Below, in pieces: positions 2,027-9,280 of a stretch of DNA of 18,994 nucleotides; the first letter of the stretch is position 1; every line of letters begins with the position of its first letter. The DNA is from Planctomycetales bacterium (GTDB lineage: Bacteria; 4484-113), in contig JBBIJQ010000037.1 in NCBI GenBank assembly GCA_037445915.1, positions 1 to 18,994 on the forward strand, written 5' to 3'. The notes beneath the pieces are model-generated. The model was not told where the DNA came from, did no database searches, and worked only from the letters and a program-made list of their open reading frames with translations. A program made the position numbers and the translations under genes.

Positions 2027-2629
2027 ATGGGACTGCCGAAAGCAGCGAAAAAAGGTATCTTCAGCATTGAGGGCGACTGGAACCCTGACTTGCGGAAACA
2101 CTACTCCGTAGAGGCGGGCCTGCGCCTGCTCAAGGAAGCGGAGGGCATTCCCTACATCCACCGCCGCGTGGGAACCGCTGAGGAGTTTGAGTACTACCTC
2201 CACCAGTGGACGCTCAAGAAATACGAGGGGTATCCAATCCTCTACCTGTCGTTTCACGGCGGGCCTGAGGGCTTCTGGCTGCCCGAAGACAAAAAGCGCC
2301 GGAACACTGTGACGCTGGATATGCTCGGCGACCTGCTTGAGGACAAGTGCCGTGGGCGCATCATCCATCTCGGCGCATGCGCGACGATGGCGATGCACAA
2401 TTCGCGTCCCAAGAAGTTTATGCAGAAAACCAGCGCGCTGGCGGTGTGCGGCTACACCGAAGAAGTTGGCTGGACGGTGAGCACCGCGTTTGAAGTAATC
2501 CTGTTTTACAGAATGCAGCGCCGCGCCTTCAACCGCGCAGGCGCCCAGCGCATCCACCGCGACGTGGACATGCTCGCCAAAGGCCTCGTGCAGAAGCTCG
2601 GCTTCAAGATGAAGGTCCGCTCAGCCTAG
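2027..2629 (+). CDS. DUF6642-like protein, predicted caspase/CHAT (clan CD) fold
   Basis: Motifs IFSIEGDW, YIHRRVGTAEEFEYYL, ILYLSFHG (H77), IIHLGAC (C118) and VCGYTEEVGW. Family recognised from memory. Confidence 0.7.
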   Translation: MGLPKAAKKGIFSIEGDWNPDLRKHYSVEAGLRLLKEAEGIPYIHRRVGTAEEFEYYLHQWTLKKYEGYPILYLSFHGGPEGFWLPEDKKRRNTVTLDMLGDLLEDKCRGRIIHLGACATMAMHNSRPKKFMQKTSALAVCGYTEEVGWTVSTAFEVILFYRMQRRAFNRAGAQRIHRDVDMLAKGLVQKLGFKMKVRSA

Positions 2630-3697
2630 TTACTTCCCCTCCGCGGCCTTTCCGAAGGCCTGCCAGAAGGGGTCAACGCGCGGATGAACTAGCTCGCGCT
2701 TCATGCCGCCCTCAAAGACGTTCATACCCTCAGCCTTGGGCACGACTTCGCCCACGATGGACGATGGAATGCCCTTGGCGCTCAGGCGCTGCACGACTTC
2801 ATCAGCCTTGTGCGGACGGCATGTGACTATGAGCGTGCCTTCGCTGATGCTGGAGTATGGGTCAATGCCGAAGAGATTGCAGACCTTCGCGATGATGGGC
2901 TGGAGGATAATGTCGTCCTTGTAAATCGCCATGCCGACGCCGGACGCCTCGGCGACTTCAAACAGGCCGCCCCAGATGCCGCACTCCGTTGCATCGTGCA
3001 TTGATGTGACGCCGTCGCCGCGTACTCCGGCTTCCACCGCTGTGAGCGCGTCGTCAACGACGCTCATCTGCCAGAAGACCTCCTCGGCCTCGCGCGCCGC
3101 CGCTTCGCCGTAAGCCGCAGCCACGCGCTGCGGGTAGGTGCAAGCGAACAGGCCGGCAGCTTCAATGGCTGCGCCCTTAGTGATGATGACGCGGTCGCCC
3201 ACGCGCGCCATTGTGGGCGTGACGTATTTGTCCGCGTCGCCGATGCAGATAACCGTCGCACCGCCAACCATGGGATAGCCGCAGCCCTCGTAACGGCCAG
3301 TGTGGCCAGAGACTATGGCCATGCCTATCTTGTCGCACTCGCGATGGATGACGCGCCACATCTCGTCTAGCTCGTCGCGCGTGATGGTCATCGGTAGGTT
3401 TAGGTCAATGGTCATATAAGTAGGTGCTAGGCCAGAGGTCACGGCGTCGCTGGCGAGGATGTGCACTGCGAACCATGCGCTGCGCTCCCAGCCATACGGC
3501 GGGACGATAAACACGGGGTCGGTGGTAGTGACCATTACGCGCCCACCGCCGATATCGCATACACCGATGTCAACTCCGTGCTGCGGGCCTACGAGGACTG
3601 TGTCGCGCCTGCGCCCGAGCTGGGGCAGGAATATCTCGTTGAATATCTCCGGCGACACTTTGCCGATGGCGGGAAGGTTAGATTTGCCGTTGCTCAT
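2630..3697 (-). CDS. AIR synthase-related (PurM/ThiL/HypE/SelD fold) ATP-binding protein, TPP-riboswitch controlled
   Basis: Motifs GPQHGVDIG, TTTDP, ILASD, SGHTG, ITKG, MHDATECG and SEGTL. SD AGGAG upstream. The HypE C-terminal PRIC motif is absent. Confidence 0.88.
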   Translation of the reverse strand: MSNGKSNLPAIGKVSPEIFNEIFLPQLGRRRDTVLVGPQHGVDIGVCDIGGGRVMVTTTDPVFIVPPYGWERSAWFAVHILASDAVTSGLAPTYMTIDLNLPMTITRDELDEMWRVIHRECDKIGMAIVSGHTGRYEGCGYPMVGGATVICIGDADKYVTPTMARVGDRVIITKGAAIEAAGLFACTYPQRVAAAYGEAAAREAEEVFWQMSVVDDALTAVEAGVRGDGVTSMHDATECGIWGGLFEVAEASGVGMAIYKDDIILQPIIAKVCNLFGIDPYSSISEGTLIVTCRPHKADEVVQRLSAKGIPSSIVGEVVPKAEGMNVFEGGMKRELVHPRVDPFWQAFGKAAEGK

Positions 3698-3749
3698 AAC
3701 GCGCTCCTATGCGAAATTGTGCCGCAGGGGAGGGGAGTTTCATACAGTG

Positions 3750-3826
3750 CCGTGTTCCCTACGCCGGTATTATCCGGATCAGGTGCAAAGGGTTAATCTC
3801 AGCCTTTGAGGGCTCCCCTAACGACC
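3750..3826 (-). ncRNA. TPP (THI-box) riboswitch aptamer
   Basis: The minus strand reads TAGGGGAGCC-CTCAAA-GGCTGAGA-TTAACCCTTTGCACCTGATCCGGATAATACCGGCGTAGGGAA. It has the hallmark GCTGAGA, ACCTGAT, P5 CCGG/TAAT/CCGG and GCGTAGGGA elements. Confidence 0.95.
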
Positions 3827-3832
3827 GTTGCG

Positions 3833-3861
3833 AGTCTATCACTAACTCAGATAGAAGACAA
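3833..3861 (-). promoter_or_regulatory. Sigma70 promoter driving the TPP riboswitch transcript
   Basis: The minus strand reads TTGTCT-17 bp-TAGACT with a TG extension. The predicted TSS near 3826 coincides with the aptamer 5' end. Confidence 0.7.
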
Positions 3862-3869
3862 GCGTGGGC

Positions 3870-4967
3870 TTAGCGGTTGCGGACGCGCATCAAAATGATG
3901 CCCGACAAGAAGACTGCGCCGTTGGGAATCCATGCAGCGACTGAAGGCAATATCATCCCCCCGCGCCCCATCTGCATTGATAGAGTGTAAAGCAGGAAGT
4001 AGAGTAGGACGATGAGCAGGGACAAGCCCATGCCCATAGAGGTTGACGAGCGCAGGGGTATGATGGCCAGTGGCACACCAATGAGGACAAAAAAGAGCGG
4101 CGAAAATGGGATGGAGAATTTAAAGAAGTACTCAACCTGGAACCGGCGGATCGTCCGTGCGTCCATTCCCGACTCTTTTTGATAGCTGATAATTTTACGC
4201 AGGTCAAAGACGGACAGCTCGCCGGGGTTTTTGCTCTTGAGCGCGATGTCGGCGGGGCTGAGGTCAAAGTCCGGCACTACCCACTCGTCAAACTTCGTGG
4301 TTACAACACCTTCGCTGAGGAAGCTATGCACCTTGCCACTGTAGAAACTCCAGCGCGAGCCATCCCATCGGGCGTTCTGCGCTTGCAAATGCCAAGAGTA
4401 TTCATGGGTTCGAGGGTCAAATGAGAGCAGGTTCAAGTCTTTGAGGTTTGCGTTTTCCAGCCTGTCCGCAAGCAGCAAATAGCTCAAGTAGCCTTGCCGG
4501 TAAAAATTGAGGCTGACCTTGTTTTGCGCAACCCGCCCGGTCTTTTCCTGGATGATGCGCTGCTTGATTGTCTCGAAGCGGTAATTGGCATATGGGGCAA
4601 TCTGCTCGTTGAGGATAAACGTGATGAGCGAGAGCACTAAGGCGAAAAACAGTATTGGCAGGGTAATGCGGTAAAGGCTGACACCTGCGGCGCGCAATGC
4701 CGTAATCTCAGAATCCCCTGAAAGCCTACCGACAGCGAGCAACGTCCCGCTAAGCATCGCCATAGGAAACGTGTAAACAACCCATTGAGGCAGGGATAGC
4801 AGCAGGAGTTCCAGGAAGACATCAGCGCCTACGCCGTACTTAATGATGAAATCCAAAAGCGGCTTTAGAAGAGCCGCGCCTATTATAAGAACTAGAAAAG
4901 CGAATGTGGCGAACAGGAACGGCGGAGTTAGCTCAATCATCACCAGCCGGTCAATGCGCTTCAACAC
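3870..4967 (-). CDS. LptF/LptG family LPS export permease
   Basis: Three N-terminal TM helices, RLSGDSEITALRAAGVSLYR, a periplasmic beta-rich segment (AQNARWDGSRW) and three C-terminal TMs ending AAWIPN. Start placed at GTG 4967. Confidence 0.9.
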   Translation of the reverse strand: MLKRIDRLVMIELTPPFLFATFAFLVLIIGAALLKPLLDFIIKYGVGADVFLELLLLSLPQWVVYTFPMAMLSGTLLAVGRLSGDSEITALRAAGVSLYRITLPILFFALVLSLITFILNEQIAPYANYRFETIKQRIIQEKTGRVAQNKVSLNFYRQGYLSYLLLADRLENANLKDLNLLSFDPRTHEYSWHLQAQNARWDGSRWSFYSGKVHSFLSEGVVTTKFDEWVVPDFDLSPADIALKSKNPGELSVFDLRKIISYQKESGMDARTIRRFQVEYFFKFSIPFSPLFFVLIGVPLAIIPLRSSTSMGMGLSLLIVLLYFLLYTLSMQMGRGGMILPSVAAWIPNGAVFLSGIILMRVRNR

Positions 4968-8380: not shown

Positions 8381-9280
8381 TTAGCGCGCCTTAGGTTTGA
8401 CGAGTTTTAGCAAATGAGCGAGGTTGGCGTCTTTACGTATTACAGGCTTGATAAGCCCTTTGGCGCTAGTCATTAAGCTGGTAGCGCCTGGGCCGTGCCC
8501 TGCAGTATGGCAAACGCCATGCACAACGACAGCAATAGTTACAGCGCCGGTTAGGTAGGTGCGGCCAAATGTAGTGTCAGCGTTAATTATCGCCACTATA
8601 TCGCCGAAGCGAAGAGTATCCAGGCCATACTTTTTTACGATAACTGGGTCAAAAAGCTGAATGTCGTAATCGCCGGTATGGGCGCTGTCTTTGCCAATGC
8701 CGCTAGCCATCACGGCGGCAGGGACAATATGGGTAACACCAACCTCAATGCTCTTGCCCGTTACTTGAGGAGACATTGCTTTGAGCAGGCGCGGGCTTAA
8801 GTTCATAAGCTTCACGCCCTCAAAGCTGGTAAAAGCCAAGCCAGCACCAATGGCGCGAATCTGCACCTTGTCGCCAACAACTAGCTTGTCGCGGACTTCG
8901 GGCTGAAAGTCCAGGATAACGTGTTCAATCCCTCCGTGCTTGCCTGTGACAACTCCTTTCTTGCCCTTCGCCTCGCCAGTGGCGACTGTTGCTTCATTGC
9001 CAATGCAAGAAAACACCGTCAGGCCAAACTTGCCCGCGTCGCGGCCGATGCTATCGTTGAAGTTGCTGACTGAAACGCCTGGTTCAACATGGTCGCCGAC
9101 GATGTCAATGCAGTTATCGCCGACGCGGTGCGTATAGTTAATTCCGCCCATGCCGGGGAGAATTAAGGGCTCGCCGGTAATCGCGGAGACTATGTAGTGC
9201 TTTTGGCCTGATGGCGGGTTTGTAATTTCAGCGAGAAGCGCTTTCTCAACGAGCTTTTTCTCATTAGTGGCAAGTTTCAT
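8381..9280 (-). CDS. DUF4438-like protein of unknown function
   Basis: Motifs LPGMGGINY, GDHVEPGVS, SCIGNEA, TGKHGGIEH, DYDIQ, LRFGDIVA and GHGPG. SD GGAG upstream. Family recognised from memory. Confidence 0.8.
   Translation of the reverse strand: MKLATNEKKLVEKALLAEITNPPSGQKHYIVSAITGEPLILPGMGGINYTHRVGDNCIDIVGDHVEPGVSVSNFNDSIGRDAGKFGLTVFSCIGNEATVATGEAKGKKGVVTGKHGGIEHVILDFQPEVRDKLVVGDKVQIRAIGAGLAFTSFEGVKLMNLSPRLLKAMSPQVTGKSIEVGVTHIVPAAVMASGIGKDSAHTGDYDIQLFDPVIVKKYGLDTLRFGDIVAIINADTTFGRTYLTGAVTIAVVVHGVCHTAGHGPGATSLMTSAKGLIKPVIRKDANLAHLLKLVKPKAR

Follow-up and report, generated by a model that had tools for sequence, protein, structure and literature searches.

The window, an 18,994-nucleotide (nt) stretch of contig JBBIJQ010000037.1 from a Planctomycetales bacterium, contains a gene, here called X, that is preceded by a thiamine pyrophosphate (TPP) riboswitch and that encodes a 355-amino-acid (aa) protein of the PurM superfamily (Table 1). 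Specifically, the Rfam covariance model RF00059 matches the leader of X over its full length (model positions 1-105), scoring 72.7 bits where the gathering score is 54.3, with an E value of 6.5e-13. The aptamer lies where a first-pass annotation, made from the letters of the DNA, had put it (~3826-3750), and the compactness noted there corresponds to a shortened P3 stem in the RF00059 alignment. It is the sole RF00059 match in the genome, which comprises 1.79 Mb and is 90% complete. The 3' end of the aptamer is 41 nt from the ATG of X, and the Shine-Dalgarno sequence that the same annotation had reported is located in this interval. Downstream, a convergent gene encoding a DUF6642 protein abuts the stop codon of X. 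Thus, X is the sole open reading frame (ORF) under the control of the riboswitch, as had been proposed. Upstream of the X unit, the window carries a gene for an LptF/LptG permease.

We infer how the riboswitch operates from predicted folds of the leader. A C-rich segment (Table 1) has two predicted partners. In the free minimum-energy fold, positions 3732-3727 pair with the aptamer sequence GGGGAG at 3813-3818. When the aptamer pairs are enforced, CUCC at 3732-3729 pairs with GGAG of the Shine-Dalgarno sequence at 3707-3704. This arrangement suggests a translational OFF switch: TPP bound at the aptamer would free CUCC, CUCC would sequester the Shine-Dalgarno sequence, and translation of X would cease. 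As a TPP riboswitch, the element is predicted to bind TPP and to repress expression of X. The whole leader folds no better than shuffled sequence (z = 0.78). A promoter had been placed at 3861-3833, and here the first-pass annotation does not stand: a consensus promoter scan of positions 2400-4000 failed to recover it, the hexamers, as read by eye, agreeing with the consensus at 8 of 12 positions, under the scan threshold. The scan returned one promoter-like site, at 3796-3769 inside the aptamer, with 0.6 expected by chance.

Table 1. Features discussed in the text. Positions without a locus handle are those of the window; G000 is the genome that contains the window.
Feature	Location	Strand	Basis
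TPP riboswitch aptamer (THI element), short P3 stem	3738..3829	(-)	Rfam RF00059
C-rich switching segment CUCCCCUCCCC	3727..3737	(-)	predicted pairing with aptamer GGGGAG or with the Shine-Dalgarno sequence
Shine-Dalgarno sequence AGGAG	3704..3708	(-)	read from sequence; 6 nt 5' of ATG at 3697
Gene X, 355-aa PurM-superfamily (AIRS/AIRS_C) protein	2630..3697, including stop codon	(-)	ORF list, translation, Pfam
Convergent DUF6642 gene (boundary, outside the system)	2027..2629	(+)	ORF list; Pfam DUF6642, 64.8 bits
DUF4438 gene	8381-9280	(-)	N- and C-terminal domains, 167 and 147 bits
ThiD2-ThiE fusion, 353 aa	G000 contig C45, L053:2531-3589	(-)	Pfam ThiD2, 98 bits, and TMP-TENI, 150 bits
X-upstream TPP riboswitches with very long P3 insertions	L037:5741-5928; L038:1056-1232; L030:1646-1788		
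Second TPP riboswitch after an X operon	L043:9335-9458		
TonB-dependent receptor genes	L043:9519-11984; L080:1766-3562		
Receiver-LpxC fusion genes	L016:7732-9033; L012:9447-10748; L021:7101-8402; L047:8413-9714		
True hypE	G000 contig C90, L003:19-1071		
PP-loop protein gene, 453 aa	G000 contig C90, L003:1084-2442		PF01171

The X protein matches the Pfam domains AIRS (44.9 bits, threshold 24) and AIRS_C (78.1 bits, threshold 23.1), and an AlphaFold2 model (predicted local distance difference test 96.8, predicted template modelling score 0.94) has the PurM fold. In a Foldseek search, the best solved matches to this model are HypE structures (E 1e-22, template modelling score (TM) 0.77-0.82, ~20% identity), followed by ThiL, SelD, and PurM. 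By sequence, too, the nearest solved structure is HypE (E 5e-13). Despite this resemblance, X fails the curated family models: it scores 79.6 bits on the hypE model TIGR02124 (cut-off 251.6), 66 bits on the thiL model TIGR01379 (cut-off 184.15), and 53.7 bits on the selD model TIGR00476 (cut-off 125). X and its relatives together span 66-90 bits on the thiL model. A Pfam scan gave no match in X to the ThiM family (PF02110), and the ThiM fold is a different one. True HypE (383 bits), SelD (311 bits), and PurM (327 bits) are encoded elsewhere in the same genome. In a maximum-likelihood tree of 43 sequences, obtained by a quick search and including three HypE sequences, X and its wider family form one group with an SH-like approximate likelihood ratio (SH-aLRT) of 91. 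That group is sister to HypE (SH-aLRT 94) and stands apart from ThiL (99), SelD, and PurM.

Signature residues of X divide it from its relatives in the same manner. X ends in AAEGK and, as had been noted, lacks the C-terminal PRIC of HypE, with which all three true HypE proteins compared, including that of the same genome, terminate. X has the motifs GHTGRY and MHDATECG at the places occupied by GD(S/T)K and RDxTRGG in HypE and by GGNL and IDxSDG in ThiL. The difference from ThiL that the first-pass annotation drew from these motifs is real, with the correction that the ThiL proteins compared show GGNL in place of the GGD it had quoted. The broader claim that X is neither a classical HypE nor a ThiL agrees with the scores, with the tree, and with the co-occurrence of X and the true enzymes. 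The N-terminal loop of X reads IGKVS and contains no cysteine. The acidic ATP-binding residues typical of the superfamily are nearly invariant in the X family. Among 110 sequences, C273 is conserved in 100%, C139 in 95%, C121 in 90%, and C239 in 82%; C139 is lost in distant members fused to ThiN, and the counterpart of C273 is also a cysteine in Escherichia coli HypE.

The family is large. A word-indexed search returned at least 5811 relatives of X at E <= 1e-3 among 8000 scored candidates, and an exhaustive search of representatives at 50% identity returned 3285 at E <= 1e-3, of which 336 reach E <= 1e-30. The best 120 relatives are all 349-389 aa long and 70-94% identical. Their sources call them "AIR synthase family protein" or, in the mislabelling that had been foreseen for X, "HypE" and "hydrogenase maturation factor." The protein atlas clusters for X bear the label "AIR synthase family protein" only. 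An alignment of 41 X orthologues from several phyla has 119 invariant positions. Members occur in records labelled with at least 10 groups, among them Chloroflexota, Actinomycetota, Bacillota, KSB1, and Calditrichota.

The link between X and thiamine extends beyond the window. We compared two sets of loci, counting, in each locus, the neighbors that share the strand of X and calling them from Pfam and local hidden Markov model (HMM) matches. Set 1 consists of 43 loci whose X proteins are 69-95% identical, one of them a 49% relic. Set 2 consists of at least 71 further unique loci, obtained from at least 600 matching stretches, at least 593 of which were confirmed as relatives; the labels on its records include Actinomycetota, Bacillota, Chloroflexota/Dehalococcoidia, Thermomicrobia, Spirochaetia, Eisenbacteria, Aminicenantes, and Zixibacteria. 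In set 1, 22 of the 43 loci have a TPP element upstream of X, and the neighbors there include thiE (27 loci), thiD (10), tenA (7), and thiL (8); 39 loci have a TPP element or any thi gene. The corresponding counts for 71 loci of set 2 are 27 (TPP element), 23 (thiE), 7 (thiD), 4 (tenA), 2 (thiL), and 34 (TPP element or any thi gene). Both sets together place thiE beside X in 50 of 114 loci. Of the 22 TPP elements in set 1, the Rfam threshold is reached by 21, each located directly upstream of X (in 12/20, 3/13, and 6/10 sources), and the remaining one, as well as all 27 of set 2, derives from a covariance model built in this analysis. When 14 of the set 2 elements were rechecked with Rfam, 9 passed and 5, all high-GC Actinomycetota elements, fell below threshold. 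Three X-upstream riboswitches possess very long P3 insertions (143-188 nt in total; Table 1). One of the three, in L037, is under the Rfam gathering score and was recovered only with the model built here.

Several operon types are discernible. X is found in the order riboswitch-X-tenA-thiE-thiL-thiD, in Actinomycetota as riboswitch-thiE-X, in Bacillota as riboswitch-X-thiD, and in loci of the Deferrimicrobiaceae type as X-thiE, lacking a riboswitch. The TMP-TENI proteins adjoining X pass the ThiE cut-off (207-231 bits vs 145) and do not pass the TenI cut-off. The second AIRS gene of the X operons is true ThiL in six of six cases tested (299-312 bits vs 184). In many loci, the gap between X and thiE is ~7 nt, indicative of translational coupling. 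X is also fused to thiamine enzymes: X-ThiN or ThiN-X fusions occur in three of nine odd-length representatives scanned, and the five relatives of at least 623 aa at E <= 1e-30 comprise two ThiD+X, two isochorismatase+ThiN+X, and one TonB-plug+X proteins. ThiN is an alternative thiamine-phosphate synthase. The ThiN fusions and the translational coupling to thiE argue that thiamine-phosphate synthase uses what X makes. The triple fusions P0275 and P0276, in which an isochorismatase-family hydrolase is joined to ThiN and X, are 756-757 aa long, and one comes from a Bacillota record. In L043, a second TPP riboswitch ahead of a TonB-dependent receptor gene directly follows the X operon, and in L080 such a receptor gene directly follows X (Table 1); these receptors suggest outer-membrane uptake of a thiamine-related compound.

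Which substrate X provides is narrowed by the enzymes that accompany it. ThiM exceeds its cut-off in one of the 44 set 1 genomes, G043, which encodes true ThiM (277 bits) beside thiE. The X relative of this genome (L048) is 49% identical, its match is split over two frames, and it is perhaps a copy in decay. The 50 X-bearing genomes searched from set 2 yielded no ThiM (20 loci of set 2 lie outside this search), and ThiM and X occur together in 0 of 93 X-bearing genomes. By comparison, even sampling of one X-containing phylum gave ThiM in 80 of 301 genomes, and 6 of 14 model genomes used as controls carry it at the same threshold. ThiG is clearly present in 16 of the 44 set 1 genomes, and each of these belongs to the Deferrimicrobiaceae type without a riboswitch. 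Of the same 44, 2 have Thi4, 40 have ThiE, 29 have ThiC, and 33 have ThiL. Within the phylum of the window, 24 species genomes divide cleanly: 8 have X and the other 16 have ThiG, with no overlap and none lacking both. None of the 24 has ThiM, and 23 have ThiE. In the family to which the window belongs, the sole genus that lacks X carries ThiG. All of these counts overstate the statistics, because relatives are not independent; we estimate that the X-bearing genomes represent about a dozen independent lineages.

The genome of the window shows the same gap. It encodes ThiC and a ThiD2-ThiE fusion (Table 1), and searches of this 90% complete genome found no canonical ThiD, ThiG, Thi4, ThiM, ThiS, ThiH, ThiO, or thiamine pyrophosphokinase (TPK). 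ThiL was likewise not found; we attribute its absence to the missing 10%, and all seven close relatives have it. ThiD or ThiD2 accounts for the source of hydroxymethylpyrimidine diphosphate (HMP-PP). Thiazole phosphate has no such known source here, and these phyletic patterns leave X as the only candidate. We conclude that X most likely supplies thiazole phosphate to thiamine-phosphate synthase, either ThiE or ThiN.

How X might do so is a separate question. With a probability of roughly one half, we regard X as a PurM-fold, non-orthologous hydroxyethylthiazole kinase. X would use ATP to phosphorylate salvaged 4-methyl-5-(2-hydroxyethyl)thiazole (HET), or a close derivative, and would replace ribokinase-fold ThiM in organisms without ThiM, often also without ThiG and Thi4. 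In the genome of the window, ThiC would make hydroxymethylpyrimidine phosphate, the ThiD2-ThiE fusion would make HMP-PP and couple it to thiazole phosphate, and ThiL, seen in the close relatives, would complete TPP. X would be the one step of the pathway under TPP feedback. A HET kinase explains why X and ThiM exclude one another. It also explains why X coexists with ThiG in some genomes, as in E. coli, which has both ThiM and ThiG. Finally, it explains why tenA, thiD, and TPP-controlled TonB receptors accompany X in operons of a salvage type, and it explains the fusions of X, which resemble the ThiE-ThiM fusion of yeast THI6.

The parallel with ThiM is extensive. The supply of thiazole phosphate to ThiE, proposed for X, is the task of ThiM; both are controlled by TPP riboswitches and reside in operons with thiD and thiE, and fusions of X to thiamine phosphate (TMP) synthases have their counterpart in the fusion of ThiM to ThiE. 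In contrast, ThiM has a ribokinase-like fold (PF02110) and an unrelated sequence, whereas X has the PurM fold and a kinase activity that is proposed only. Sulfur-gene neighbors and conserved cysteines also set X apart; to our knowledge, ThiM is known for neither. From its own superfamily, X shares with ThiL the fold, the thiamine pathway, and often one operon. ThiL binds the thiazole-ethyl-phosphate part of TMP, and, by analogy, a related pocket in X could hold HET. The tie to thiamine that the first-pass annotation had drawn is strongly supported by the riboswitch, the thiE, thiD, tenA, and thiL neighbors, the ThiN and ThiD fusions, and the phyletic patterns. The annotation had cast X as a kinase replacing ThiM, ThiK, or ThiL. 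The ThiM replacement fits best, thiamine kinase fits poorly, and replacement of ThiL is rejected, as discussed below.

Several considerations weigh against a HET kinase. We infer both the substrate and the chemistry from the gap in the pathway, and we know of no PurM-superfamily enzyme that phosphorylates an alcohol. A kinase would render many ThiC-bearing genomes, including this one, thiazole auxotrophs, which is an unusual lifestyle. No thiamine gene or TPP element is present within 5 kb in 37 of the 71 loci of set 2. The absence of ThiM loses force with so few independent lineages, perhaps a dozen, and the 16 genomes of the phylum that lack X have no ThiM either. The genome of the window is incomplete and its ThiL was not recovered. 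Last, a plain kinase leaves unexplained the conserved cysteines C273, C139, and C121, together with the sulfur-transfer genes that neighbor X, namely an upstream NifS and NifU, MnmA, ThiI-like, MOSC, rhodanese, and PALP genes.

Such sulfur-transfer genes surround X in the loci of set 2 that lack thiamine neighbors. Of 114 loci, 15 have a NifS-like gene no more than 3.5 kb from X. In six Dehalococcoidia-type loci, it lies just upstream on the same strand, and four of those six genes pass the NifS equivalog cut-off (592-603 bits vs 530.75). In several lineages, X also neighbors genes for NifU, MnmA, ThiI-like, MOSC, rhodanese, cysteine-synthase-like PALP, and Cys/Met pyridoxal phosphate (PLP) proteins; a Cys/Met PLP gene adjoins X in the window's own clade as well (L009). 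Dedicated cysteine desulfurases typically adjoin their sulfur acceptors. The genomes with a NifS-X locus have ThiE in five of five cases, and ThiG was found in none of the five. Thus, the X proteins of these loci face the same gap in the pathway. In HMM score, they are interspersed among the thiamine-linked X proteins, so that the two appear to constitute one family. Co-folding of NifS and X from L086 scored 0.00, run without controls, and weighs neither way on binding. The ThiE genes of four Dehalococcoidia NifS-X genomes occupy frames of ~360 aa, near the 353 aa of the ThiD2-ThiE fusion in the genome of the window.

A serious alternative, with a substantial chance of being correct although we rank it below the kinase, is that X is an ATP- and sulfur-dependent enzyme that forms or completes thiazole phosphate. 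X would then be a third, categorically new thiazole synthase beside ThiG and Thi4. The notion is that ATP would activate a carbonyl oxygen, as in PurL, PurM, and HypE, and that sulfur from a NifS persulfide or from sulfide, perhaps carried on the conserved cysteines or on an iron-sulfur cluster, would build or close the ring. Genomes with ThiC, X, ThiE, and ThiL would be full thiamine prototrophs. Such a complete pathway suits the retention of the costly ThiC by this genome better than thiazole auxotrophy does. In favor of this alternative are the NifS and other sulfur genes beside X in several phyla and the presence of ThiE without a detected ThiG in all five NifS-X genomes. The conserved cysteines point in the same direction, although C139 is missing from the distant ThiN-fused members, C273 may be structural given its cysteine counterpart in E. 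coli HypE, and the NifS-X arrangement of the Dehalococcoidia may reflect one evolutionary event.

Superfamily relationships also bear on a sulfur-dependent synthase. The nearest family to X, HypE, is an ATP-using PurM-fold enzyme that acts on a cysteine-bound thiocarboxamide. X further shares with SelD an N-terminal Gly-Lys loop and a GGH(S/T)-type motif. SelD receives selenium from NifS-like enzymes, and the pairing of X with NifS recalls that delivery. In contrast to SelD, X has neither cysteine nor selenocysteine in its N-terminal loop, scores below the selD cut-off, and coexists with a separate, true SelD in the genome. With ThiG and Thi4, to which it has no relation in sequence or fold, X shares the phyletic pattern of a thiazole phosphate source, complementing ThiG perfectly across the 24 genomes of the phylum. 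In 16 of 44 X-bearing genomes, however, ThiG accompanies X and would make a second synthase redundant. Moreover, neither a carbon precursor nor a reaction can be named, the building of a thiazole usually takes more than one dedicated protein, and X often sits in clear salvage operons (tenA, thiD) of genomes that lack ThiC.

Unlikely, in our view, is that X acts on some other compound related to thiamine, for instance by ATP-dependent repair or recycling of a thiazole or thiamine derivative that is damaged or ring-opened, such as a thiazolone or the thiol form, to a substrate for ThiE. The proximity of X to tenA and to TPP-controlled TonB receptors, the triple fusions with an isochorismatase-type hydrolase and ThiN, and the riboswitch-less X that accompanies ThiG in 16 of 44 genomes would all suit such a function. 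HypE and PurM chemistry involves S-C(=O)-N and N-formyl groups, which resemble these damage products. Repair would leave unfilled the thiazole source of ThiE genomes without ThiG, Thi4, and ThiM, and no result points to a specific substrate.

There is little to recommend X as a thiamine kinase or a second thiamine-phosphate kinase, that is, as a ThiK-like or ThiL-like enzyme. X does share a superfamily with ThiL and, with its relatives, scores 66-90 bits on the thiL model, it is controlled by a TPP riboswitch, and ThiL was not found in the 90% complete genome. Replacement of ThiL is rejected, because true ThiL resides in the same operon as X at six loci and because 33 of the 44 genomes with X encode ThiL, all seven close relatives of this genome among them. 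X also differs from ThiL in its score (66 bits vs 184), tree group, and active-site motifs. Furthermore, ThiE, ThiN, and ThiD, with which X is fused or coupled, are steps that a thiamine kinase would bypass, and X is complementary to ThiG.

We dismiss a HypE-like role of X in hydrogenase maturation, which many database labels imply. Of the curated families, hypE scores highest, and HypE structures match X best, but the score is far under the cut-off, the PRIC cysteine is absent, true HypE is encoded elsewhere and branches separately, and hyp genes adjoin X in 0 of 114 annotated loci.

We regard X as a new family of enzymes assigned to a step of the pathway that is already known. A search of the full-text literature, with subscription-journal papers and supplementary files outside its coverage, found no description of the family. 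The matching passages of the OarX paper (PMC11223231) make no mention of PurM, HypE, or AIR synthase. Those of the genome paper on Caldithrix abyssi (PMC5317091) call the thiamine pathway incomplete and leave X unmentioned.

Thiamine biosynthesis is regarded as solved, and many uncultured or anaerobic lineages nonetheless hold ThiE without a known thiazole source. Such lineages are scored as auxotrophs in models of vitamin exchange. X is one conserved family, routinely labelled "HypE" or "AIR synthase family protein," that would fill this gap. Whether X proves to be a HET kinase or an enzyme of sulfur-dependent thiazole formation, predictions of auxotrophy would change for many genomes. If the synthase is correct, the PurM superfamily would gain an enzyme chemistry new to it, and prototrophy would replace the thiazole or thiamine auxotrophy now assigned to many anaerobic lineages.

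Additional observations concern the surroundings of X and of its relatives. In Deferrimicrobiaceae-type loci, an unusual 434-aa fusion of a response-regulator receiver to a full LpxC deacetylase is encoded just downstream of X-thiE (Table 1). In Actinomycetota loci, genes for PfkB and Indigoidine_A follow X, and L063 has radical SAM/BATS and aminotransferase genes there; all of these look unrelated to X. The DUF4438 and DUF6642 genes of the window (Table 1) have no assigned function. On another contig of the same genome, the gene directly after true hypE encodes a PP-loop protein, the frame of which runs off the end of the stretch (Table 1). Finally, SelD occurs twice in G023, G017, and G035 (L150-L152) and in other genomes, once as a domain of a 742-766-aa frame and once as a stand-alone copy with one in-frame TGA, which likely encodes selenocysteine.

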